A stretch of 64,000 bases of DNA from an uncultured delta proteobacterium (GCA_963727445.1 CAVSGI010000010.1:608001-672000); one strand, 5' to 3'; counted from the first letter of the stretch, positions 35,522 through 50,802 are shown. Notes: generated from the letters alone by a model not told the origin. Numbers and translations are program-made.

Positions 35522-37220
35522 TCAGAGGCCGGAGGTGCCGGGTGTCGGCACCGGGAGCGTCGTCGCTTGGAGGTTTGCTCCGTTGTCGTAGTAGTCGACA
35601 GTGGCGGAGAGGCGCGTGAGGTCGTACCCGTCCACCTGGACGCACGCCCCGACCGGGCATCCGCTCACCTCGCCCATGTCGAGGTCGACGCGTCCATCGG
35701 TCGCGAGCTGGAGCCCGCAGAGCGCCGCGTCGCGAATGGCGAACCGCTCGGCTCGGAGCTGCGCACCCATGTAGGCGCCCACGCCGATGCCGGCGGGTGC
35801 ATCGGGGCAATTCGTGGTGGCACATTCGCGCTCGCGCGTCGACAGGACGCGCGTGTCCACGAGCTCGATCTGGGTGCCGGAGCCGAAGCCGACGACCGCG
35901 ACGTCCCGGTTGTCCGTGATGAGCGCTCTCTCGAGGTGGGCGCGCGCGCTGCGGTCCACCGCGAGGGCCCGGCCGTAGCGAAGGTCGCCGCTGGTGCTCC
36001 GGGTCTCGGTGATGACGGCGTCCTGGAGGAGGAGCTCGCCGGTACCGTTTCCCACCGTGACCGCCTGCTCGGTCGCCCGTTCTATCCACACCCGGGTCGC
36101 GTTCAGGTTGGTGCCCTCGGCGAAGACGGCGCGTCCGATGGCGCCGAAGGTCGGGTCGGGGCCCACGTCTCGTATCACCGCGTCGGTGAGGGTCATTCGG
36201 CCGTTCTGAGCAAGCATGGCGGCGCCGTTCGCGTTCTCGATCACGATCCGTTCAACGGTCAGCTCACAACCCACGCAGATGAGGCCCGCGTTCGTCGTGG
36301 AGCTGATGACCACGTCTCGCAGGGCTCCCATGGAGCCACTGGAGCCGAAGGTCCCGACCCAGATCCCCCCGGTGGACTCGCGGACCGCGACGCGGTCGAG
36401 GTCGAGCTCGCCGGCCCCCTCGAGTCGGATGCCTGTTCCGGAGTCGCTCGGCAGCCCCGCCAGCGCCACGTCGCGAATCGACACGTCGGTGCCCGAGAGC
36501 CGAGCGCTCCCGCGCAGCACGATGCCGGCGTCGTCGACCGAGGAGATGACGACGTGCTCCAGAGCCGCGCTCCCGCCGTCGTCGATGACCACGCCGCGGG
36601 TGGGTCCGGGAGATCGTGAGGTCCTGGAGCCGAACGCCGGAGCCGGTGACCATCACGACCGCGGATGCCGCCGGATCGTCAGGGGCAGACAACGTCACGC
36701 CGGAAGCACAGGCTCCTCGGATCGTGACGTCCGGGCCGAGCTCGATCGCCTCGGAGTATGCGCCGACGCCCACCGCGATCGTCTCCCCCGGGGCCACTGC
36801 GGTCAGCGCGTCGGTGATGGTGGCGAATGGCAGGGTGGAGGAACCGTCTCCCCCCGGAGCCGCGTCAGCGCTGACGAAGACCACACCTTCGGCGGGAAGG
36901 CTCGCGAAAACCCCATCGCTGGGACAGGCGGATCCAATCCGGGAGCAACCAGGCTCGCCGGGGAAATGCGCCTCGTTCGAGCCGCACTCGAGGCGGCCTT
37001 CCTCGGGCCAGGGATCGCATCGAGCCAGCTCTGGAAACGCCGCCGCCACCGTCTCACGCCAACCGGATGGGCACGGCGTCAGCACGGGCAGGGCGATGGT
37101 AGCGGTCCCCGCATCATCGTCGACCGGCGGATCCCCGCCACAAGCGACACACCCGAGTACCGCGAGGAGTGGCAGCGAGCTCTCAGCGAATCTCCACACC
37201 GGCAGCTCCGATTCGAGCAT
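35522..37220 (-). CDS. Lipoprotein with DUF1565-like lead-in and right-handed parallel beta-helix repeats; frameshift at ~36609
   Basis: CVAC lipobox; GGDGSSTLPFATITDAL; repeated LxDxVIRD/ET units. Paralog of 52286..54385. Confidence 0.7.
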
Positions 37221-38080
37221 CGAACCGCCACGCGTTGCAAGTGTCGGGCGTGCAATCGCCCATCCGGCAGCCATCGGCGTCGCAGATGGAGTCGGGGGGG
37301 TACGTCCAGGTGTCCGGTGGCGTGGTGCAATCCGCGCTGGCGAAGAATCTCGCACCCGGTCACGCCAACGACGGGGAAGCTACCCTCGATGGTGGAGTCC
37401 AGCAGGACGAAGCTGGTGACACGACCTCGCCCCAGCACGCGGCTGCTCAGCGTGTCGTATTCGCCGACGCACGTGCGATCGTGGCTCAGCTCGACGCCGA
37501 TGAACGTCAACTCGGCGAGCACCAGCTCCACGGGAGTCGATCCGTCCGTGTCGTGGATGGGCACGACGAAAGGCACGGGAGCGGGCTCGCTCGTCAAGAG
37601 CTCACCTTCGATCGTACCCGTCGTGGTGAACGGATCCCAACGCGCCGGGTCATCGGGGCCCGGCGCGTCGCCCGCGTGCCACGCGTAGTACGACTCGTCG
37701 CTGCCTCGCGCGAGAGTTCCGATTCGGATCGTGACGGGTCCATCGGTGCCGGTACCCTGGATCTCGAACCCGACCATGAGCGCGTCCAGGCGTAGGGCTT
37801 GGGTGAACCCGTACGCGACCGCCGCGTTCGTGAGCGCGAGGGGCAGAGTGTTGTCGAAGTCGACGACTTTGAGCTGAGCTGAGGCCAGGCGATCTTCGTT
37901 ACTGCGGGCGTAGCAGCAGGGCAACGACAAGGTCGACTCCCAGCAGGGATTGGGCATCCCCGAATCCACGGTGCCCGTGTCCGTGAGTGGGGAGGAATCG
38001 GGAGCCGTCGACGTCTCGCCGCACCCGAACACCGAGGAAAGGCTGGTTGCGAGCATCGCGAGGCAAACCACGGGGCGCAC
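37183..38080 (-). CDS. Hypothetical Cys-containing lipoprotein; frameshift at ~37347
   Basis: VFGC lipobox; repaired C-terminus GCEIFASADCTTPPDTW...CNAWRFDARIGAAGVEIR*. Confidence 0.6.
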
Positions 38081-38213: not shown

Positions 38214-41200
38214 GTGGACATAGCCATCATCGGTATTGGGTGTCGCTACCCAGGCGGCGTCGATTCGCCCGCGTCGTTCTGGCGCCTCTTGAGATCGGGC
38301 GTGGACGCCATCACCGAGATCCCGGACGACCGGTGGAGTCAGTCCACGCAGTTCGACCCTGACAAGCCACCCGGAACCAGCAACAGCCGCTGGGGCGGGT
38401 TCCTCGACGATGTGAGTGGGTTCGACCCGTCGTTCTTCGGTATCTCGCCCCGAGAAGCCGCGGCCATGGATCCGCAGCAGCGCCTCCTCCTGGAGCTCGC
38501 CTGGGAGGCGATGGAAGATGCCGGCGTCCCGCCGGGCACGCTCCGGGGCACGCCGTGCGGGGTGTTCGTGGGCCAGTCGAGCTTCGACTACGCCGAGATT
38601 CAGAAGGCGCCGAGCAACCGGCACCTCATCGACGCCTACACCAACCTCGGCACCGCCGGGAGCATCGCGGCCAACCGGATCTCGTACATCTTCGATCTCA
38701 AGGGGCCGAGCATGACGATCGACACGGCGTGCTCGTCGTCGCTCGTCGCCACCGACGTCGCTTGTCGCTACCTCCGGGACGGAGTCATCGACCACGCGCT
38801 CATCGGCGGGATCAACCTCATCTTGAAGTCCGAGACGACGATCGGTTTCGCCCAGGCGTCGATGCTCTCCCCCGACGGGCGCTGCTTCGCCTTCGACGCC
38901 CGCGCCAACGGCTACGTCCGCTCCGACGGCGCCGGCGTGGTGCTGCTCAAGCCTCTGGCGCATGCGCTACGGGACGAGGATCGGGTCTACGCCGTCATCA
39001 AGGCCACGGTGAGTAATCAAGACGGTCACACCCGTGGCATCACGGTGCCCAGCCAGAGTGCCCAGGTCGCGGCGATCGAAAGCGCCCTCGCGCAGGCTGG
39101 CCTCGCCCCCCACGAGGTTCAGTACGTCGAAGCTCACGGTACCGGGACGCCCGTGGGCGATCCGATCGAGGTCCGTGCGCTGAGTGCCGCGCTCGGAGGC
39201 GATCGCGCGCGCCCGCTCCTGGTGGGCTCGGTCAAGACCAACATAGGCCACCTCGAGTCGGGCGCAGGCGTGGCTGGTCTCGTGAAGGCTGCGTTGGCGC
39301 TTCATCACGGCACCATTCCGCCGAGCCTCCACGTCGAACGTCCGAATCCCGCCATCGACTTCGAGTTGCTCGGCGTCGAGGTGGTGACCTCGCCCACACC
39401 GTGGCCCGAGGGACCGCGATACGCCGGGCTGAACAGCTTCGGCTTCGGCGGTGCGAACGCGCACGTCATCCTCGGGGACGCCCCGCCCGCGCCAGCGAGG
39501 AGCACACCTCACCCAGGCCCGCATTTATTGACCGTCTCCGGTCGTAGCGAGGCCGGCTTGAGAGCCCGCCTGGCGCAGCTCACAGAGTGCCTCGAACACG
39601 ACGCCATTCCGCTCGCCGACCTCTGTCATACGGCGAGCGCTCGGCGAGACCACCACCCATACCGTCGCGGTGTCGTGGGGGCCGATCGCGCATCGCTGAC
39701 GGCCGCGATCTCGCACGCGATGGATCAACCCGTTGCACCGGTGCCGGCGGCTCGGCCTCAGGTCGCCTTCGTCTACACGGGGATGGGGCCGCAGTGGTTT
39801 GGGATGGGCCGCGAGCTCTCGGCGTCGTCCGATGTCTTTCGCGACGCGATGGTGCGTTGTGACGCGTTGTTTGCCGGGCTCGAGCACGGCGTCTCGGTCC
39901 TGGAAGTGCTGGCGGCTGACGAGGAGGCCTCGCTCATCGATCGAACCGAGCACGCCCAACCAGCCATCTTCTCCATTCAAGTTGCCCTGACGGAGCTCTG
40001 GCGGCGTTGGGGGCTGCGACCCGACCTGATCATCGGACACAGCATCGGCGAAGCAGCGGCTGCATGGGCTGCAGGCGCCTTGACGCTCGAGCAGGCCGCT
40101 TTGGTCATCCATCATCGCAGTCGCTTGCAGGCCGAAACCGCCGGCTCCGGCACGATGCTCGCGGTGGGACTGTCGGCGACCGCGGTGACGCACTTTCTCC
40201 GCGGCCTCGAAGATCGCGTCGCCATCGCCGCCATCAACAGCGGCGACTCCGTGACCCTGGCCGGCGAGCACGACGCTTTGGAGCAGATCGCGGAGGCCCT
40301 CGACAGGGTCGGCGCTTTCCAGCGCCGACTGTCGGTCGAGGTTCCCTACCACAGCCCGCAGATGGCACCGGTGGCGAAGCACCTCGCTTCCGCCTTGAGC
40401 ACGCTCGTGCCCGTGCCTGCATCGGTGTCCATGTTCTCGACCGCCTCGGGGACATGGGTCGGCGAGCGCCTCCTCGACGGGGCCTATTGGGCGAGCAACG
40501 TCGAGAACCCCGTCCGGTTCAAAGACGGCATCCATGCGCTCGTGAGCCGCGGTGCGGCTGCATTCCTCCAGGTCGGCCCCCACCCCGTTCTGTCGAATGC
40601 CTTGATGTCCGAGGCCCCGGACCGACCCGCGCTCGCCTCGCTGCGCCGGAACGCTCCGGAACATCAGACCCTCCTGACGGCTGCTGCGCGCCTCTACGAG
40701 CTCGGCCTGTCCTTCGACTGGGCCGAGATCAATGCCGGCAAGCGCGTCGACCTGCCGAGCTATCCCTTTCAACGGCAGCCCTTCTGGCGGGAGGACCAGC
40801 GCTCGGAGGAGACGCGCATCGGCGCCGCGCGTCACCCGATGATCGGCCGGCGGACCATGGCGCCCGCACCCCGATGGAATCCGACGATCGACACGCGTCG
40901 TCTCCCCTGGGTCGCCGACCACGTCCTGCAGGGCTCGGTGGTCTTCCCCGGCACGGGATACGTGGAGATGGCGCTCGCCGCCGGCAGCGAGCTCTTCGGG
41001 GGCCTCCCGGGAGGCCTCGACGACGTGCGCTTCGAGCAGGCGTTCTTCGTGCAGCGAGACACCCGTCACGCTCTCGAGCTCCAGGTCGACCCGGCCTCGA
41101 AGCAATGGGAGGTCTTCGGACGCGGCCCCGAAAATCACTGGATCCGCCACGCGAGTGGGTGGCTGCATCGCGACCGCTCCTCCGTGCCGGTGATCGACGC

Positions 41201-44200
41201 AGCGGCACTTCGGCAATCCTGTCCGATCCGACTCGACCACCAGGCCTGCTACGCGCGCTTCGAGAGACTCGGCTTCTCCTACGGGGACTCATTCCGTGGC
41301 ATTCGGGCTTTGCACGTGGGTCCGCGGCGGGCCTTCGCCGAGATCGAGGTCCCAGCATCGCTCTCGAAGGTGGAGGCCTACTCGTTTCATCCGGCCGTGC
41401 TCGACGCGTGTTTACAGCTCCTCGCCGGCGCGGCGCCGGAGCTCCACGGCCTGGCCGTGCCGGTGGCCATTCGGCGCATGCGGGTGCACGGGACCCTGAC
41501 GCGACGCATCCAGTGCTTCCTCCAGCTCCACGCCGGGCACGGTCAGGATCTGGTGGGTGACCTTCTGGCCTTCGATGAAGAGGGCCGGCTCCTCATCGAG
41601 ATGGAGGACCTCACCGCACGCTGCACGGAACTGTCGCGGCCAGCGACGGTCGCCGACTTCGACCCACTGCTCTATTCCCCGCGCTGGGTGAATGCGCCGC
41701 TCGATGGCAAGCACGATGCCTCGTGGATCCCGCGATTGGACCAGCTCGCCGCAGCTGGAGGAAAGGCGCCACGGTGGCAGGTTCGGCGCGTCGACATCGG
41801 GGACGGCGAAGCAGAGCTCGAAGCGCTGGCCACGGACTACATCGTGTCCGCACTCAGGAACCTGGGATGGCAGCCGGCGCTCGCCGATCGCTTCACGGCG
41901 ACAGAGCTCGGTCGCTCCCTCGGGGTGGATCCGCAGCACGATGCGCTCTTGGCACGCTACCTCGGCTTTCTCGTCGTGGACGGCGTGCTCGGCCTCGAAG
42001 CCGGGTCCTACGAGGTGCGGCGCGATCCGGGGCGACCCGAACCGAGCGCCACCTGGCGAGAGCTCTACTTTCGCTACCCTGCCTCGCAGGCCGAGCTTCG
42101 GCTGCTCCGCCGGTGCGGGTCCCACCTGGCCGACGCACTGGCTGGGAAGATGAGCGGCGTCGAGTTGATCTTCGTCGACGGCTCGTCGAGCCTGTTGGAG
42201 CACCTCTACCAACACGCACCTTCGGTCGCTTCTGCAGCGGCCGCCGTGCAGTCGGTGATCGAGGCGCTCGACGCGGCTCGGCCCGTCGGCCGGCCCCTGC
42301 GGATTCTCGAGGTCGGCGCTGGAACCGGGGGCCTCACGGCCGCGATGGTTCGTGCCCTGCCGGATCGCGAGGTCGACTACTGCTTCACCGACGTCTCGCC
42401 TCTGTTCTTGCAGCGCGCGAAGGAGCGGTTCCAAGACCTCCCGTTCCTTCGCTTCGAGATCTTCGACCTCGAGCAGCCCGCGCAAGAACGAGGCTTGGCC
42501 CCCGGGTCCTTCGACGTGATCCTCGGTCTGGACGTGCTGCACGTCATGTCCCGACTCGACCGCGCACTCGAGGCGATCGGCGAGCTCTTGGCTCCCGATG
42601 GCGTCTTCGTGCTGGCGGAATTGGTGGAGCGCTACCGGACCAGTGAGCTGTTCTTCGGAATGCTGCCAGGCTGGTGGAGCTTTCAGGGCGACCCACGCCG
42701 CGACGATCACGCACTCTTGTCACCATCTGATTGGAAGTCGCTTCTGCAGGAGCACGGCTTTCGCGAGGTCGTCCGGACGGCCGCGCCCGACCCGTCGGCG
42801 CGCGCGGTCTTCCTGGCCCGGCGCCCTCGGATCTCGGCGAGCAGCGAGCCGCGGAAAGAAGAGTCCGCGGCGGCGCCGACGACGGGCCAGCGTTGGGTCG
42901 TGTTCGAGGACGCCGGGGGCGTGGGCGCGGCCATGACCGAACGCCTTCGAACGACGGGGGCCGAGGTGATCACGCTACGAGAGGCCGACGCCCCGGACGA
43001 GGCGCATCTGGCGCGAATCCTCGGGGGCTCGCTCCACGGCGTGCTCCATCTGTGGAACCTCGATGTCCCGGACGGCAAAGAGGCCATCGCGCACGCCGAG
43101 AGCCACGGCACGTTCTCGATCGCGCGCCTCGCCCAGGCGATCCCCGAAAAGGGCCGCGCCGGGTCCCATCCACTCGTCATCGTCACGCGGCAGGCATGGG
43201 CCGTCGATGGGCCGTCGAGCGAGCCCGCCGCGGCCCTGGCGTGGGGCCTCGGTCGCTCGCTTCGAAACGAGCGCGTCGACCTCGACCTGCGCTTGTTGGA
43301 CATCGACGACGAGGCGGACGTCGACGCTCTGTGGACGGAGATCCGCGGAGGCGTGGACGACGAAGTTGCGCTGCGAGGCTCGAGACGCTTCGTTCGGCGG
43401 CTGAACCCCACCGCGCTCCGCGACCTCCAACGAGAAGCGCCGCCACGGGATTGCCGCATGGTGCTGACGGTGCCAGGTCTCGTGGAGTCGCTCTCGCTCT
43501 TCGAAGTCTCGGACGACCCGCTCCCCGAGGGGTGGGTATCGGTCGACGTCGCATCCACGTCGCTCAACTTCAAGGACGTGACCCGCGCGGTCGGCCTCCT
43601 CGCGGAGTCCCGCGAGAGGGCCGCCTCGGCGTCCGAGCTGGGCCAGGAGTCCGCTGGTGTAGTGCGTCGCGTCGGTCCGGGAGTCGACGGAGTCGAAGTG
43701 GGAGACCGGGTCCTGGCATTGGTCGGCGGAGGCCTCGGTTCCGTCGTGCGTTGCCCCGCGGCGCTCGTCGCCAAGCTCCCCGACGACGTCACCTTCGACG
43801 AAGCTGCGGCTATTGGCATGGTCTTCCTGACCGCGTACCACGCTCTCTTGAATCTGGCGCGCTTGCGGCCCGACGAGACGGTGCTGGTTCATTCGGGAAC
43901 GGGTGGTGTGGGTCTGTCGGTCATCCAGCTCGCGCACTCCATCGGCGCGCGCGTGATGGCGACGGCGGGCTCGGCGGAAAAGCGCGAGATGCTCTTGGCG
44001 CTCGGCGCCGAACGTGTCGGAGACTCGCGTTCGCTGGCCTTCGTCGACGACGCGCGCGCGTGGACCGATGGGCGGGGCGTGGACGTCGTCGTCAACAGCC
44101 TGGCGGGCGACGCCCTGCACGCGAGCCTGAATGCGCTCGCGCCCTACGGACGATTCGTCGAGCTCGGCCGGCGCGACATGGAAGAAGGTGGGCGCCTCGA

Positions 44201-46727
44201 TCTTCACCCGTTCCTGGAGAACCGCGCGTTCTTCGGCGCCGATGTCGACGCGTTGCGTAGTGAACGCCCGGAGGAAGCCGGCGCAGTGATGCGCGGATTC
44301 CTCGAGGACGTGGCCCGTGGGCGCATGCGAACGTTGCCGTACAGACGCTTTCCACTCTCGGAGACCGTGCCGGCTTTGCGCGCCCTCTCGCGTGCGGAAC
44401 ACACGGGCAAGTTCGTCATCTCGACCGGCACCGAGTCGCGTACCGTCGTCCCCGCCGCGGCACCGAAGCTCTCGTTACCCGGTACTCACGTGATCACCGG
44501 CGGATTGGGAGGGCTGGGCTTCGCGCTCGCCCAGTGGCTCGTCGCCTGTGGCGCGCGCCACGTGGCGCTGCTCGGACGACGCGGCCTTCAGAGCGAATCC
44601 GACCGGGAACGCGTCGAGGCCCTGGGCCGCGCCGGCGCCGACGTCCGGGTGTGGCCCTGCGACGTCAGCGACTCATCACGCCTCGCCGCAGTGCTCGCCG
44701 AGGTGCGGGCGACGATGCCCCCCGTCCACGGCGTGTTCCATCTCGCCATGGTGCTGCGCGACGAGCCGGTCGCGCGCATGAGCGCACAGACCCTTCACGA
44801 AGTGCTCGCCCCGAAGGCCTGGGGCGCCTTCCATCTCCACAGGCTCACAGAGTCGGATCCCCTCGAGCACTTCGTGTGCTTCAGCTCGGTGTCCGCCGAG
44901 CTGGGAACCCTCTTCCAGGGGTCCTATGCGGCGGCGAACACGATGCTCGATGCCCTCGCTCATCATCGGCGTGCGCTCGGCAAGCCAGCGCTTTCGATCG
45001 ACTGGGGAGCCGTGGCGGAGGTGGGCGTGGTCGCGGAGACGCGAGAGACGGCCAGCTTCCTCGCGAGCCTCGGCGTGGACACCATCCCCGTCGCTCGCCT
45101 CCTGGCGGTGCTGGGCGAGATGATGCGTAACCCTGCCGCCCCACCTCAACTGATGGTATCGGCGATGGATCACGCGCGGCTCATCCGGGCGATGCCGCGC
45201 CTTCGGGAGAGCCCCAAGTTCGAACGCCTGACCGAATCGCTGGTCGAGGCGACCATGGGCACGGGAGGCGACGAGGTCGATCGCAAGACCCTGATACGGA
45301 GAGAGGTAGCAGCGATACTCGGGAACGACCCAAAGCGTGTGCGCGATGACATGCCGCTCGTCGATCAGGGCCTGGATTCGCTGATGGCCGTCGAACTCTC
45401 CAATCGGCTCCGGAACAAGCTCGGAATCGAAGTCGCCACCATGACGCTGCTGGAACACGCGACGGTGACGAGCCTCGAGGAGAGAACGGCCCGAGAAGGG
45501 GACCGCTCTGCATCCGCCGAGTCGGAGTCCTCCGAATCTGTGGACCTCGACGCCGAGGCCCAGCTCGATGCGTCCATCGCACCCACCGGGCGCGACATCA
45601 CACACACCGCCGATCCCCAGATGGTCGTGGTCACGGGGGCCGCGGGGTTCATCGGGGCACACCTGGTCCATCGCCTGCTCGAGCAGACGTCGGCCGAGAT
45701 CCAGTGTGTGGTGCGGGACCGAGGCGACGGCGCTCGCGCCCGATTGCTGCGCGCCCTCGACGGGTACGGGCTCACACACCCCGACCGGGAACGACGCTTG
45801 AAGGTCGTCGACGGAGACGTGGCATTCCCGCGCTTCGGGCTCGACGCCAGCACGTGGGAGTCCCTCGCCGAGGCCGACCACATCTACCACGCTGCAGCCC
45901 GGCTCAACTTCGCCCTTCCTTATCGGGCCCTGCGTGGCCCAAACGTCGTCGGTGTTCGAGAAGCGCTGAGGCTGGGTGCGACGGGCCGCCTGACGCCGGT
46001 TCATCATCTCTCCAGCTTTCCGGTCGTCGGTCAGCCAGGCGGAGTTCCGGCCGAGCGGGGATACAGCGCGCACTACCTCGCGTCACGCGGCTACGACGTC
46101 GGCTACATCCAGACGAAGTGGGTCGCCGACCAGCTCGTAACCCACGCGCGAGACCGAGGGCTCCCGGTCACGACCTATCGACCTGGCTTGGTGGCAGGGC
46201 ACTCCGGGACTGGCGTCTGGAACACCGAGGATGTCACCTGTCGCATCATCAAAGGTTGCATTCTCCTGGGAACGGCGCCCGATCAGGATCAGATGCTCGA
46301 TCTCGTTCCCGTCGACTACGTGGCCGCGGCGGTGGTGAACTTGTCCCTCCGCGAGAGCTCGTTGGGGCGGGGCTTCAACATGGCCAACCCCGCGCCCGTT
46401 AGCTGGCGGTGGTTCGTCGGGTGGCTTCGGGAACAGGGATACGACATCGAGCTGGTCCCCAGTGAGCGCTGGCACCGACAGGTGTCCGCGGGTCGCCTGC
46501 CGGAGGATAATCCACTCCGGAGTCTCGTGCCCTACTTCCAGCAGCGCCCACTGGACCGACCGCTCGTAGGGTATCGCGAGCACGCGCGTGCACCACGGCT
46601 ACTCGCCCGACTCACGACGGGGGCCGCGCTAGAGGGTCAGGGCGTCCTCTGTCCACCTCTTGACCGCAAACTGCTCGGCTTGTATGTCAGCTTTCTGCAA
46701 AGCACCGGGTTTCTCCCGCTTCCCTGA
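38214..46727 (+). CDS. Single-module highly reducing type I polyketide synthase KS-AT-DH-cMT-ER-KR-ACP-R (terminal thioester reductase)
   Basis: KS DTACSSS/HGTGT/GHLE; AT GHSIG and VPYHS; DH HVLQGSVVFP and LDACLQ; MT LEVGAGTGG; ER LVHSGTGGVG; KR TGGLGGLG, VLRD and YAAAN; ACP GLDSL; R TGAAGFIG and YIQTK. Confidence 0.95.
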   Translation: MDIAIIGIGCRYPGGVDSPASFWRLLRSGVDAITEIPDDRWSQSTQFDPDKPPGTSNSRWGGFLDDVSGFDPSFFGISPREAAAMDPQQRLLLELAWEAMEDAGVPPGTLRGTPCGVFVGQSSFDYAEIQKAPSNRHLIDAYTNLGTAGSIAANRISYIFDLKGPSMTIDTACSSSLVATDVACRYLRDGVIDHALIGGINLILKSETTIGFAQASMLSPDGRCFAFDARANGYVRSDGAGVVLLKPLAHALRDEDRVYAVIKATVSNQDGHTRGITVPSQSAQVAAIESALAQAGLAPHEVQYVEAHGTGTPVGDPIEVRALSAALGGDRARPLLVGSVKTNIGHLESGAGVAGLVKAALALHHGTIPPSLHVERPNPAIDFELLGVEVVTSPTPWPEGPRYAGLNSFGFGGANAHVILGDAPPAPARSTPHPGPHLLTVSGRSEAGLRARLAQLTECLEHDAIPLADLCHTASARRDHHPYRRGVVGADRASLTAAISHAMDQPVAPVPAARPQVAFVYTGMGPQWFGMGRELSASSDVFRDAMVRCDALFAGLEHGVSVLEVLAADEEASLIDRTEHAQPAIFSIQVALTELWRRWGLRPDLIIGHSIGEAAAAWAAGALTLEQAALVIHHRSRLQAETAGSGTMLAVGLSATAVTHFLRGLEDRVAIAAINSGDSVTLAGEHDALEQIAEALDRVGAFQRRLSVEVPYHSPQMAPVAKHLASALSTLVPVPASVSMFSTASGTWVGERLLDGAYWASNVENPVRFKDGIHALVSRGAAAFLQVGPHPVLSNALMSEAPDRPALASLRRNAPEHQTLLTAAARLYELGLSFDWAEINAGKRVDLPSYPFQRQPFWREDQRSEETRIGAARHPMIGRRTMAPAPRWNPTIDTRRLPWVADHVLQGSVVFPGTGYVEMALAAGSELFGGLPGGLDDVRFEQAFFVQRDTRHALELQVDPASKQWEVFGRGPENHWIRHASGWLHRDRSSVPVIDAAALRQSCPIRLDHQACYARFERLGFSYGDSFRGIRALHVGPRRAFAEIEVPASLSKVEAYSFHPAVLDACLQLLAGAAPELHGLAVPVAIRRMRVHGTLTRRIQCFLQLHAGHGQDLVGDLLAFDEEGRLLIEMEDLTARCTELSRPATVADFDPLLYSPRWVNAPLDGKHDASWIPRLDQLAAAGGKAPRWQVRRVDIGDGEAELEALATDYIVSALRNLGWQPALADRFTATELGRSLGVDPQHDALLARYLGFLVVDGVLGLEAGSYEVRRDPGRPEPSATWRELYFRYPASQAELRLLRRCGSHLADALAGKMSGVELIFVDGSSSLLEHLYQHAPSVASAAAAVQSVIEALDAARPVGRPLRILEVGAGTGGLTAAMVRALPDREVDYCFTDVSPLFLQRAKERFQDLPFLRFEIFDLEQPAQERGLAPGSFDVILGLDVLHVMSRLDRALEAIGELLAPDGVFVLAELVERYRTSELFFGMLPGWWSFQGDPRRDDHALLSPSDWKSLLQEHGFREVVRTAAPDPSARAVFLARRPRISASSEPRKEESAAAPTTGQRWVVFEDAGGVGAAMTERLRTTGAEVITLREADAPDEAHLARILGGSLHGVLHLWNLDVPDGKEAIAHAESHGTFSIARLAQAIPEKGRAGSHPLVIVTRQAWAVDGPSSEPAAALAWGLGRSLRNERVDLDLRLLDIDDEADVDALWTEIRGGVDDEVALRGSRRFVRRLNPTALRDLQREAPPRDCRMVLTVPGLVESLSLFEVSDDPLPEGWVSVDVASTSLNFKDVTRAVGLLAESRERAASASELGQESAGVVRRVGPGVDGVEVGDRVLALVGGGLGSVVRCPAALVAKLPDDVTFDEAAAIGMVFLTAYHALLNLARLRPDETVLVHSGTGGVGLSVIQLAHSIGARVMATAGSAEKREMLLALGAERVGDSRSLAFVDDARAWTDGRGVDVVVNSLAGDALHASLNALAPYGRFVELGRRDMEEGGRLDLHPFLENRAFFGADVDALRSERPEEAGAVMRGFLEDVARGRMRTLPYRRFPLSETVPALRALSRAEHTGKFVISTGTESRTVVPAAAPKLSLPGTHVITGGLGGLGFALAQWLVACGARHVALLGRRGLQSESDRERVEALGRAGADVRVWPCDVSDSSRLAAVLAEVRATMPPVHGVFHLAMVLRDEPVARMSAQTLHEVLAPKAWGAFHLHRLTESDPLEHFVCFSSVSAELGTLFQGSYAAANTMLDALAHHRRALGKPALSIDWGAVAEVGVVAETRETASFLASLGVDTIPVARLLAVLGEMMRNPAAPPQLMVSAMDHARLIRAMPRLRESPKFERLTESLVEATMGTGGDEVDRKTLIRREVAAILGNDPKRVRDDMPLVDQGLDSLMAVELSNRLRNKLGIEVATMTLLEHATVTSLEERTAREGDRSASAESESSESVDLDAEAQLDASIAPTGRDITHTADPQMVVVTGAAGFIGAHLVHRLLEQTSAEIQCVVRDRGDGARARLLRALDGYGLTHPDRERRLKVVDGDVAFPRFGLDASTWESLAEADHIYHAAARLNFALPYRALRGPNVVGVREALRLGATGRLTPVHHLSSFPVVGQPGGVPAERGYSAHYLASRGYDVGYIQTKWVADQLVTHARDRGLPVTTYRPGLVAGHSGTGVWNTEDVTCRIIKGCILLGTAPDQDQMLDLVPVDYVAAAVVNLSLRESSLGRGFNMANPAPVSWRWFVGWLREQGYDIELVPSERWHRQVSAGRLPEDNPLRSLVPYFQQRPLDRPLVGYREHARAPRLLARLTTGAALEGQGVLCPPLDRKLLGLYVSFLQSTGFLPLP

Positions 46728-46742
46728 CGGACGGAGACGACA

Positions 46743-47300
46743 ATGGCCAGCGACTTTCAAAAGCAGAAGTACCTCGACTTTTTCAACGTCATCGACAGCA
46801 ACCAGAACGGACAGATCGAGTTCGATGACATGGCGTCCCACGTCTACAAGCTCGCCACCGCCAAGGGTTGGCAGGAGAGCGACGATGCGTTCAAGCGCCT
46901 CCTCGACGCCAAGAAGAGCACCTGGAAGGCCATCTCCGAGCGCTGCGGCGGGTCAGAGAAGATCTCCAGTGATGAGTGGGTCGACATGTGCGACGGCGTG
47001 GCAACCGAGATAAAGCGCGACGGCAAGGCGCCCGCGTTCGTCACCGAGGCTCATCTCGCGACCTTCAACTCTCTCGATCTCGACAACAGCGGCGGGATTC
47101 ATCTCGACGAGTACGAGCACTACCTGAAGTCGATGGATGCCTCGACCGCGCAGGCGGCCGACGCGTTCAGCCGGGCCGACGCCAACAGCGACGGTCAGGT
47201 CACGATGGAGGAGCTGCAGGATCTACTCGTCGAGTTCTTCGTCAGCGACGAGCCCGGCGATCCCGGAAACGGCTTCGTGTCCGGCAAGGTCTACGCCTGA
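46743..47300 (+). CDS. EF-hand calcium-binding protein, calexcitin/sarcoplasmic Ca-binding protein/calerythrin type
   Basis: Loops DSNQNGQIEFDD, DLDNSGGIHLDE and DANSDGQVTMEE, with a degenerate second loop; SDFQKQK N-terminus and EFFVSDEPGDPGN C-terminus; GGAG RBS in the 15-nt gap. Confidence 0.9.
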   Translation: MASDFQKQKYLDFFNVIDSNQNGQIEFDDMASHVYKLATAKGWQESDDAFKRLLDAKKSTWKAISERCGGSEKISSDEWVDMCDGVATEIKRDGKAPAFVTEAHLATFNSLDLDNSGGIHLDEYEHYLKSMDASTAQAADAFSRADANSDGQVTMEELQDLLVEFFVSDEPGDPGNGFVSGKVYA

Positions 47301-47442: not shown

Positions 47443-48181
47443 CTACTGATGGTGCATCGCGGGCGTCGCGGGGAGCGCCTCGACGCCGACGGTGGCGAGA
47501 CCTGTAGGCAACGGGGTCGTCGCCGTGCTCGCCGCGGGAAGCATGATGCAGGTGGCCGAAGAGGTGAAGTCGATCGCGCCGGTGGTCACGGAAGAGGTCG
47601 GCGCGAAGTCGATCGTCCCGTTCGGAACAGGGACCTCGAAGAGCCACAGTCCGCCCGGGATCGCTTCGAGCGATGCGGAGGTCGACGCGACGAGCAGTCC
47701 GCCCTGGGAGGTGATGCGCGCCGTGGGTGGAGATTGACCGTTGTCGCCGCCGTACCACTTGGCCCAGGCGAAGCGCGTCGGCGAGGTCTTCGAGTGTGTC
47801 GAGGGCGTCATCGAGTGCGGAGAGCGCCTCGGTCGGCGAAAGAGATTGCCAGTCGAAATGAAGCCAGAAGTGAAGCGTGATCGACGCGCGAAGCGTGCCG
47901 GTTCCGTCGATGCGATCCTCGGTCGTCGCGTCTTTGCCGTCACCGTCGAAGAGCTCTATTGGAACGTCTGTCGCGCCGATCGGGAAGGTGATCGTGAGCG
48001 GCGCGCTCGCCGCACCCGGGCCGGTGGGCGTCGGAGGAGGCAAGAGCGTCGGTGCCTCGACCCCCTCGACCGGAATCTGCATGTCGAGGTCGAGTCGACG
48101 AAACGCGTGGTACACGGTGGCGGGCTCGGTCGTGACGACCATGCCGGGCGCGTCGCGCTCGATCGCGACAACGCGGCGCAA
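47443..48181 (-). pseudogene. Fragment of a large surface protein, lacking a convincing start, with a frame change at ~47770
   Basis: Protein-like text (VVTTEPATVYHAFRRLDLD..., IELFDGDG...; then GGLWLFEVPVPNGTIDF) spans two frames, with no signal peptide. Confidence 0.4.
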
Positions 48182-48299
48182 TAGCCCCTGTGGTCATGAC
48201 GAACGCGGTCCTGGAAGGCAGAGATCTAGCCGGGGTTTAGAATTCGTCGTTGGCGGCGACCGCCTTTCCATTCTCTTCACGGTCTCTTAGGATGTGTCC

Positions 48300-49061
48300 A
48301 TGAGGTCGGGTTCGGCCGTCTTCTTGTTCGTCTTTTCTGCCGTGCTCCTTCCTTCTCTGGCGTACGCGCAGGAAGAGGGGGACGAGGCGGCCGTCGAGCA
48401 CTTTCGCCTGGGCCAGGAGTACCTGGCCGACAACCGTTTCGAGGACGCGCTCCGCGAGTTCCGCGACGCCCATCGCCTCAGCGGCCGCGCCGAGATGATC
48501 TTCAACGAGGCGGTCGCGCTCGAGAAGCTGCAGCGGTGGGGAGAAGCGGCCGACGCCTACGAGCGCTTCGTGGACGCCGTCCCGGAGGATCACTCGGCTC
48601 GTGAAGGCGCCGTGTCGCGCGCGCAGGAGATGAGACGTCGCGAGGCGTCGGAGCCAGCCACCGAGATGGTCGAGCCCGTGACGCTGCAGCCGGTGAGGGT
48701 CGCCAGCCCGAGCCCGCTCACCTTGCCCGGCGTCGTGGTCCTCGGCGTGAGCGCGCTCATCGGCGCGAGCTCTCTGGTCACTGGGTTGATCGCCCACGGG
48801 ACCTACAGCGATCTCGAGACGCAGTGCGTCGACGACATCTGCCCGGCGTCGCTCCGGGACGACCGCGACACCGCGTCGTCCTTCGCGTCGGTGTCGACCG
48901 TCCTCTTCGTGACCGCCGTCGTCGGCGGCGTGCTCGGTGGCACGCTGATGGCGCTCGGCCTCGCGGGGGTGGGCGCGGACGACGGCGAGGGCGCGAGCGC
49001 GGCCATCGTCCCCTTCGGTGCCCCGGGGGGCGGCGGCTTGACCGTGACGGGAAGCTTCTGA
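48300..49061 (+). CDS. Secreted TPR protein with C-terminal hydrophobic segments
   Basis: Signal peptide; AVEHFRLGQEYLADNRFEDALREF, FNEAVALEKLQRWGEAADAYERF; ends GLTVTGSF. Confidence 0.8.
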   Translation: MRSGSAVFLFVFSAVLLPSLAYAQEEGDEAAVEHFRLGQEYLADNRFEDALREFRDAHRLSGRAEMIFNEAVALEKLQRWGEAADAYERFVDAVPEDHSAREGAVSRAQEMRRREASEPATEMVEPVTLQPVRVASPSPLTLPGVVVLGVSALIGASSLVTGLIAHGTYSDLETQCVDDICPASLRDDRDTASSFASVSTVLFVTAVVGGVLGGTLMALGLAGVGADDGEGASAAIVPFGAPGGGGLTVTGSF

Positions 49062-50802
49062 TGCCCCGCCTTCTGCCCCTGGCGATCCTGCTCTCCCTGA
49101 GCGCCTGCACGGCGCTGGACGACTTCGGCAAGTTCCAGTTCCCCGACGCGACCGTCGATGGGAGCGCCGACAGCGGCGACGTCGGCCCCGACGCCCCCGC
49201 GTGCGTGCCCTCGATGGACGGAGAGGTGTGCAACGGCCTCGACGACGACTGCAACGGCCTCCCCGACGAGGGCGACATCTGTGGTCCCGGCCTGTCCTGC
49301 GTCATGGGCGAGTGCGTCGACTGCGAGCCGGGGATCCCCGACCCGCCCGACGTCGACTTCTACGACGCGAACTGCGACGGCATCGATGGCGATTTCGACT
49401 CGGCGATCTTCGTGGCGCCAGGCGCAGCGCCGGGTGGGGACGGTCGGACGCCAGATGCGCCCCTCGCCTCGATCCAAGCCGGCATCGACGCGGCGATCAA
49501 CGCGACGCGGTCCGAGGTCTACATCGCGGCGGGCGAGTACACCGAATCCGAGCCGGTACGGCTCGCGTCGGGCATCTCGCTCTACGGCGGCTACGACGCG
49601 ACGTTCACCAGCCGCAGCGACGCGGCGACGGTGCTCCACGGCGCGACGACGGCCGTCCTGGGCGAACGGCTGAGCAGCGACGTGGAGCTCCAGCTCCTCA
49701 CGATCGAGTCCGCCACCGCCACGACGCCGGGCGAGAGCTCCTACGTCATCCGGGTGATCGACAGCCCGGGGATGATCCGCATCGTCGCGTGCGAGCTCTT
49801 CGCCGGCGATGGAGCGCCTGGGGAAGGTGGAGCGAGCGGGTCCAGCGGAGCGATGGGGAACGTTGGGGACCCGGGGATGGACGGCGAAGATCGCCTCGGG
49901 GCCGGCCTCTCGGGGCAGGCGGGGGGGCGGCGGTGAGCTGCGCCGGTGGACGCAGCTCGGGCCGCGGGGGCCAGGGCGGGGACTCGGGTCCGTCGAACGA
50001 CTGCATGCCCACTTACGCCTGCCGCGATGGGTTGGACGGGGCCAGGGGACAACTCACCGGAGGAACCGCGGGCGCTGGAGGTTCGGCAGTCACCAACTGC
50101 CAAATAACGGAAAGCAGCGGAGGGGGGCCGGCCGACGGCGCAGAGAGTGGAATGCAGGGCGCGCCGGCGATGGCTCTCGGATTGGTCGACGGCGGCTCGT
50201 ACGTCCCCGCCCTCAGCGGCCCGGGTGACGATGGAGCGCCGGGGCCGGGCGGCGGCGGCGGCGGTGGGGGCGCTTCGGTCCTGAACGCCATCGGCGGGAG
50301 CGGCGGCGGCGGTGGCTCCGGTGGATGTCAGGGAACGGGTGGCGGCGGAGGTGGGGGAGGCGGTGCGTCGATCGCCGTCCTTCTCGTCAACGCCGTGGCC
50401 CTCCTGGCGAACGGGACGATTCTGCATCGCGGAGCGGGAGGCCCGGGGGGACGGGGCGGTGATGGCGGCATGGGAGGAGCCGGCGGCAGTGGAGGCAGTG
50501 GGGGGGGCTCAACTACGACTGCCACCGGCACTTGTTCGACGTTCCCAGGTGCTGGCGCCGGGGGAAACGGTGGAGACGGCGGGGAAGGCGGCGCTGGCGG
50601 TGGGGGCGCCGGTGGGCCTGGAGGCCCCTCGATCGGCGTCCTTCGCATCTCCGCGGCGATCACCGCGCCCGGATTGACCTACGAGGGCGGCATGGGCGGT
50701 GCGCCGGGCATGGGCGGCAACCGACCCGCCACCGGCAGCACCCCGGCCGAACGCGCGCCGTCCGGCCCGATGGGCATGGTCTACGACGACCATTCGCTCT
50801 GA
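49061..50802 (+). CDS. Lipoprotein with MopE-type metal-binding motif, DUF1565-like domain and Gly-rich repeat region; frameshift at ~49910-49927
   Basis: LSAC lipobox; EVCNGLDDDCNGLPDE, DANCDGIDG and LYGGYD; Gly-rich GGGGGGGASIAV. The ATG overlaps the TPR gene TGA. Confidence 0.7.

Follow-up and report, generated by a model that had tools for sequence, protein, structure and literature searches.

An SCP-type EF-hand protein encoded behind a reductive-release polyketide synthase is a probable partner of the thioester reductase domain

The polyketide synthase (PKS) gene studied here, located in the window (the whole stretch of 64,000 nucleotides of DNA that was analysed), is followed directly by a gene for a small EF-hand protein, and this protein is probably a physical or functional partner of the thioester reductase (R) domain with which the PKS ends. 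A functional pairing of the two gene products had been proposed in an earlier note on this DNA. The pairing itself is backed by gene fusions and gene neighbours in other genomes, by a complex prediction and by the residues found in the predicted interface, but it follows the R domain and not the PKS architecture as the note had supposed. What is conserved, on sequence grounds, is the combination of R domain and EF-hand, rather than the PKS.

The PKS is encoded on the plus strand at 38214..46727 as an unbroken 8.5-kb frame (2837 amino acids). The EF-hand gene (46743..47300, plus strand, 185 amino acids) encodes the predicted R-domain partner and starts after an intergenic spacer of 15 nt (46728..46742, plus strand) with a GGAG ribosome binding site at 46733-46736. 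The ORF coordinates and the spacer sequence thus agree with the short gap and the GGAG described earlier. A feature that went unremarked is that the EF-hand gene shares the reading frame of the PKS, from which it is separated by one TGA and five codons, so that the spacer keeps both genes in frame. Read-through of this in-frame TGA appears unlikely, since the R domain ends level with its relatives and the EF-hand gene has its own GGAG. The unit is bounded by a divergent, lipoprotein-like gene upstream (37079..38080) and a convergent gene downstream (47443..48181), both without a Pfam match. The two neighbours are indeed on the minus strand, as had been stated, though both look frameshifted, the downstream one near 47760; the end of the latter is more probably 47443 than 47354. 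Several flanking genes at 35522-38080 and 47443-49936 of the window change frame, which could reflect assembly indels or decay, and a stretch of about 50 bp at 49220-49275 that matches dozens of sites in two related genomes is probably a repeated protein motif. The layout suggests that the PKS and EF-hand genes are co-transcribed. A promoter and terminator scan gave results at chance level, and no synteny for the pair was found in the same-genus genome that was compared.

The Pfam domain order of the PKS is KS, AT, DH, MT, ER, KR, ACP and NAD_binding_4, the last being the R domain. The KS (38217..39338, aa 2-375) is the first domain of the protein, without a loading module. It is followed, all on the plus strand, by the AT (39768..40661, aa 519-816), the DH (40833..41630, aa 874-1139), a methyltransferase in the C-MT position (42288..42764, aa 1359-1517), the ER (43527..44420, aa 1772-2069), the KR (44481..45020, aa 2090-2269), the ACP (45294..45482, aa 2361-2423) and the R domain (45624..46724). 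All catalytic motifs that were searched for are present, and the AT motifs read as malonyl-type. This PKS is the single type I KS-level match in the genome, which is 86% complete, and the genome has one PPTase-family gene (a PF01648 match); the enzyme is therefore probably iterative. A GC content of 69%, a size of 9.5 Mb and the genes present would point to a myxobacterium as the source. The architecture, the motifs, the lack of partner modules and the PPTase are those of an iterative highly reducing type I PKS with reductive release, and we regard the protein as a single-module highly reducing type I PKS that probably acts iteratively.

The EF-hand protein was said in the earlier note to have three canonical calcium loops and a degenerate one in a compact fold, and both statements hold. 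In the sequence alignment loop I (residues 18-29, with Asp at position 12), loop III (112-123) and loop IV (146-157) are canonical, and loop II is degenerate, with a 2-residue deletion and without the acidic ligands. The AlphaFold2 model (pLDDT 94.8, pTM 0.88) and its structure matches give the compact four-EF fold of sarcoplasmic calcium-binding proteins (SCPs) and calexcitin. The best matches in sequence and in Foldseek are insect juvenile hormone diol kinase (JHDK) and calexcitin (TM 0.84-0.88), with SCPs and photoproteins ranking next; the TM score is 0.88 to calexcitin and 0.79 to Nereis SCP. JHDK is the top sequence match (E 4e-14) and also first in Foldseek rank, at an identity to JHDK and calexcitin of 24-26%. 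No relatives above 38% identity were found, and the close-homologue search returned the protein itself alone. A search for longer fused forms gave two multi-EF proteins and missed the R-EF fusions that were found later. With its four-EF fold, three canonical loops and one degenerate loop, the protein has the fold and loop pattern of the SCP/calerythrin-type EF-hand proteins.

A complex prediction for the EF-hand protein, suggested in the earlier note, was made with the ACP-R region (aa 2350-2837) and three calcium ions. In the prediction the EF-hand protein docks on R with a score of 0.85 (0.83, 0.86 and 0.85 in separate runs), and the best of three controls scored 0.00. Out of 157 solved complexes 116 pass the mark used for this score, as do 2 of 215 mismatched pairs, rates that are only approximate for the present case. 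At least 62% of the contacts are common to the runs, and the partner pLDDT is at least 87. The predicted contacts on the R side comprise residues 2606-2625, 2639, 2643, 2654-2656, 2692, 2718-2722 and 2788-2804, with none in the ACP. Three patches stand out: 46056..46130 (aa 2615-2625 and Asp2639, a Glu in unlinked R domains), 46365..46379 (aa 2718-2722, a strand) and 46575..46625 (aa 2788-2804), all on the plus strand. On the EF side the predicted contacts are 90-95, 101-105, 117, 147-148, 155-168 and 173, and the core of the predicted interface is the inter-lobe linker (residues 90-97; 47010..47033, plus strand). The prediction supports binding of the EF-hand protein to R. No complex of R with an EF-hand protein is among the PDB matches of either protein, and AlphaFold2 on a natural R-EF fusion (G1189, see below) gave a pTM of 0.65, with the EF part poorly modelled from five alignment rows.

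A clade-specific EF profile was searched against 401 genomes of the class and gave 42 matches in 34 other genomes. The contexts of 40 were read, and seven are R-linked: in five the EF domain is fused behind R, and in two it is encoded by the adjacent gene. One fusion is a PKS with the order AT-DH-KR-ACP-R-EF, the KS being cut off by the contig end (G1189). Four fusions from one genus (G1346, G1292, G1086, G1109) are of the type FAAL-type AMP-binding-ACAD-ACP-R-EF, with Pfam run on two of them. In two genomes of another genus (G1202, G1151) the EF gene overlaps the stop of a gene for an AMP-binding-ACP-unknown-R protein; the unknown part, between ACP and R, is a region of 300 amino acids without a Pfam match (L377:8525-9424, in G1202). 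FAAL-based enzymes make up six of the seven linked cases outside the present locus. Including the present locus, the linked set consists of eight loci with four architectures, to be counted as four lineages and not as eight independent events. Between lineages the R domains are 34-43% identical, and the EF domains are 23-32% identical to the protein studied here. In three lineages no biosynthetic neighbours are among the flanking genes scanned, which suggests that the enzyme and the EF-hand form the whole unit.

The calcium loops are unevenly retained in this set. None of the five fusions retains loop I or loop II; among the eight linked EF domains, loop III is present in seven and loop IV clearly in six, and at least three loops remain in the present protein and in the two unfused relatives. 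The lobe that mostly keeps its calcium sites is therefore the one with the predicted interface. Calcium binding is not uniformly conserved, since loop IV is the only one that looks intact in G1189 and is itself partly altered in G1202 and G1151.

In a FastTree tree of 158 R domains with SH-like support, all eight linked domains, including that of the PKS studied here, fall in one branch of ten rows (SH-like 98) together with L016 and P0195. L016 (L016/L437) is flagged as a long-branch join and has neither the signature nor an EF gene; P0195 has part of the signature. The signatures, with motifs and thresholds picked post hoc with the sequences in view and compared with controls that are mutually related, are an Asp four residues past the catalytic Lys in 8/8 linked R domains and in 2/150 others (131 have Glu, 17 could not be parsed), and a linker motif at EF residues 92-97 in 8/8 linked and 0/192 unlinked EF domains, of which Gly94 and Pro97 are frequent in the wider clade too. 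Positions were called lineage-specific if common to the present locus and at least two of the three other lineages and rare in controls. On R, 6 of 27 such positions are in the interface of 29 residues (p 0.012) and 11 of 27 are within one residue of it (p 0.0006); on the EF-hand protein the interface of 22 residues holds 6 of 10 (p 0.0002). The complex prediction predates the discovery of the other linked lineages, and its alignments contained none of them. The linked EF domains are not a single clade but require three changes on the EF tree. The closest EF relatives are P0004-P0006.

Judged from the genomes surveyed, the R-EF module is real but rare, with the eight loci described. In a sample of 401 genomes of the order there were 49 EF matches; of the 47 from other genomes, examined with flanks of at most 5 kb, none has a KS or R within 5 kb, and the neighbours vary. 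The phylum sample gave no EF-hand homologue beyond the genome itself (1/401). Searches that started from R gave an EF gene at 0/14 R loci of 60 relatives and at 0/80 GTDB R loci, the best 80 of 484 confirmed. R-linked EF genes were likewise found at 0/25 metagenome loci, many of which are short, and for 0/48 of the cyanobacterial matches read (of 49, most with only 1.5 kb of flank), and 0/40 Streptomyces matches read (of 49) lie beside a KS or R. A linked R profile was also used prospectively on two families, with 73 and 23 genomes, and on 271 genomes of the order; the top ranks held nothing but the training cases, and no new linked case came to light. In the last order search 12 of the 25 non-own matches were read. 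A linked EF profile, run on 140 other R loci plus another five loci, gave no matches. The earlier note had proposed looking for co-occurrence of this PKS architecture with an adjacent SCP-like gene; Rhodopirellula sp. SWK7 and Aporhodopirellula rubra, two of the 80 GTDB cases, have PKSs of identical architecture and no such EF gene genome-wide.

SCP-type EF domains also occur in other settings. Seven cyanobacterial MFS transporters carry one at the C-terminus (L310:4698-6449, L311, L312 and L313 in G967; L314 and L315 in G957; L316 in G902), recognised by Pfam in one and by translation in the others. In G967, NRPS/PKS genes lie directly beside three of the four, and no paper describing an MFS-EF fusion was found. 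MscS-type channels of about 740 amino acids are fused to the same domain (L370:5339-7564 and L373:6355-8589, Pfam on both, and six similar frames). The genome studied here has a second SCP-type EF gene (L005:10520-12354, G000:C8), located directly behind a gene for a stand-alone NAD_binding_4/extended SDR protein; being outside the clade and without the linker motif, it was not counted as linked. Elsewhere an SCP-type EF gene lies in a tight FAAL-ACAD-P450-EF-ACP-methyltransferase operon (L066:149-7016, G485), within a type I PKS/cyclase cluster that also encodes an MFS pump on a Crinalium plasmid (L208:8001-8543, NC_019733.1), before a cyclodipeptide synthase-P450-methyltransferase cluster on a Streptomyces tsukubensis plasmid (L209:612-1163, NZ_CP045177.1), and a short gap ahead of a stand-alone ketosynthase gene (L110:10001-11836). 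In a type VI secretion locus with VgrG-like and DUF2169 proteins (L074:5727-10344, G734) an EF match ends a frame of 1254 amino acids, itself perhaps partly spurious, and another EF gene comes next. In Streptomyces, the common short EF gene is often convergent with an acyl-CoA-ligase-like gene (L262-L279). With few cases among many unrelated contexts, an overall enrichment of SCP-type EF genes in biosynthetic clusters is not established.

In view of the above, the following mechanism can be considered. From its domains, the PKS would use malonyl units to assemble, on its single ACP, a chain that is reduced and probably methyl-branched; R would then free the chain, at the expense of NAD(P)H, to give an aldehyde or a primary alcohol, in line with the release chemistry of R domains as summarised in the accessible part of PMC3908369. 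The FAAL relatives would perform the same reductive release with a fatty acid as substrate. The EF-hand protein would be a dedicated accessory subunit of R, its linker (90-95) and the helix past loop IV docking, as predicted, on the outer strand and C-terminal segment of R. Calcium in the C-terminal lobe (loops III and IV) could hold the docking surface in shape and thereby tune or permit release. R and the EF-hand may have travelled together among PKS and FAAL enzymes, with fusion in some cases. Our preferred reading, at about even odds, is that the EF-hand protein is an accessory subunit bound to R and that its C-lobe, when loaded with calcium, would tune reductive release. Among the three functions proposed earlier, regulation of the synthase fits best; the five covalent fusions are hard to reconcile with a free carrier of a ligand.

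A constitutive structural subunit would also bind and stabilise this branch of R, with calcium at most a fixed structural ion and no switch; MbtH-like proteins bind and stabilise A domains. The fusions, the tree and the interface are equally compatible with such a role, and the decay of calcium loops in the fusions, down to one intact loop in G1189, speaks for it. We nevertheless think it unlikely, as the loops that are retained belong to the lobe with the predicted interface, and the present protein and its two unfused relatives retain at least three. It is more doubtful still that the EF-hand protein, seated on R, would accommodate the hydrophobic aldehyde or alcohol in its core after release, in the way that a coelenterazine-binding protein holds its ligand. 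Photoproteins and coelenterazine-binding protein do have this fold (TM about 0.7), domains of the same fold occur in fusion with MFS exporters, of which three neighbour NRPS/PKS genes, and others are inside biosynthetic operons, but calexcitin and JHDK match better than the ligand-holding photoproteins, and the covalent fusions in five of the eight linked cases exclude a free carrier there.

The EF-hand protein might instead phosphorylate the released alcohol as a JHDK-like kinase, by analogy with the reductase-sulfotransferase SwfB, in which R is coupled to an alcohol-modifying domain (accessible part of PMC3908369). This idea comes from the similarity in fold and from JHDK being the first match in both searches. 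With an identity of just 24-26%, an equally good match to calexcitin (TM 0.88), a degenerate loop that is the fourth in the JHDK alignment and the second here, and an N-lobe that has strongly diverged in the fusions, we regard it as very improbable. Finally, an ordinary calcium-buffer gene could have landed behind an R gene and been passively inherited or fused, without any functional link. Most EF homologues have unrelated and varied neighbours, same-architecture PKSs exist without the EF gene, the codon adaptation of the two genes differs (3.6th percentile for the PKS, 57th for the EF-hand gene), and 7 of 44 blindly picked neighbours also pass the complex-prediction test. Yet the linkage persists over R identities of 34-43%, four architectures, and fused and split forms, and both partners carry specific residues in an independently predicted interface; an accidental association is accordingly improbable in our view, and a partnership of EF-hand and R is preferred.

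A further-reaching possibility, which we put forward tentatively, is that the EF-hand protein senses calcium, as a free subunit or a fused one, and gates release from PKS and FAAL enzymes, so that a calcium transient would trigger the release of a fatty aldehyde or alcohol. If so, a new class of accessory protein would be added to assembly lines, and bacterial SCP/calexcitin-type proteins would have a direct enzymatic output, with the MFS and MscS-type fusions of the EF domain as sister outputs. Control of release by calcium would mean that a second messenger regulates a thiotemplate assembly line post-translationally. To our knowledge, R domains are treated as self-contained. Bacterial SCP-type EF-hand proteins, for their part, are mostly described as buffers without a target in the accessible part of PMC10574481. 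The R-EF module offers a concrete two-protein hypothesis with named interface residues, and the residues of the linked R domains form a sequence signature by which such domains can be spotted. Even if merely structural, the EF-hand protein would be a partner needed for heterologous expression of such enzymes.

Among known systems, calerythrin and the Streptomyces proteins CabA-D resemble the EF-hand protein in their compact four-EF fold with three usable sites; calerythrin is a sequence match, and 1nya, 3aka and 3akb are structural matches. In the accessible part of PMC10574481 these bacterial SCP-type proteins are described as buffers or developmental regulators, with no link to a biosynthetic enzyme, whereas the protein studied here has a predicted target in R. 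Calexcitin and JHDK are the best matches in sequence and structure but are animal proteins without a synthase partner. JHDK differs further in its loop pattern, with loop IV degenerate as read from the alignment, and has three GTP-binding-like elements according to the accessible part of PMC6780227. The TM score of photoproteins and coelenterazine-binding protein to the EF-hand protein is only about 0.7. For R, the closest solved structure is the R domain of MxaA from myxalamid biosynthesis (E 1e-74), and the best GTDB matches are cyanobacterial proteins of about 500 amino acids that we read as HglB-type ACP-reductases (HglB is described in the accessible part of PMC8064123). MxaA and the HglB/HetM-type R domains have a Glu where Asp2639 is found here, and an EF gene is near none of the best 80 GTDB loci. 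The best PDB match of the whole PKS is Mas, which likewise has one fully reducing module, and in SwfA/SwfB of a sponge symbiont such a module is coupled to R and a tailoring domain (accessible part of PMC3908369). Compared with these systems, MT and R are built into the PKS here, and what is added is an EF-hand protein in place of a sulfotransferase; the Pfam scan of the neighbours found neither the separate R-sulfotransferase gene nor the radical SAM gene that are features of swf. A system that works in a similar way is NOX5, in which an EF-hand domain binds and controls an NADPH-dependent domain (accessible parts of PMC8777244 and PMC7317449), but its enzyme fold and chemistry are unrelated and homology is not claimed. 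The view in the earlier note that the pairing had apparently not been described agrees with our full-text literature search, which found no description of R with an EF-hand in a body of text that excluded most subscription papers and supplements. Both parts come from known families, and in their pairing the EF-hand protein is a probable, so far undescribed partner of reductive-release megasynthases.
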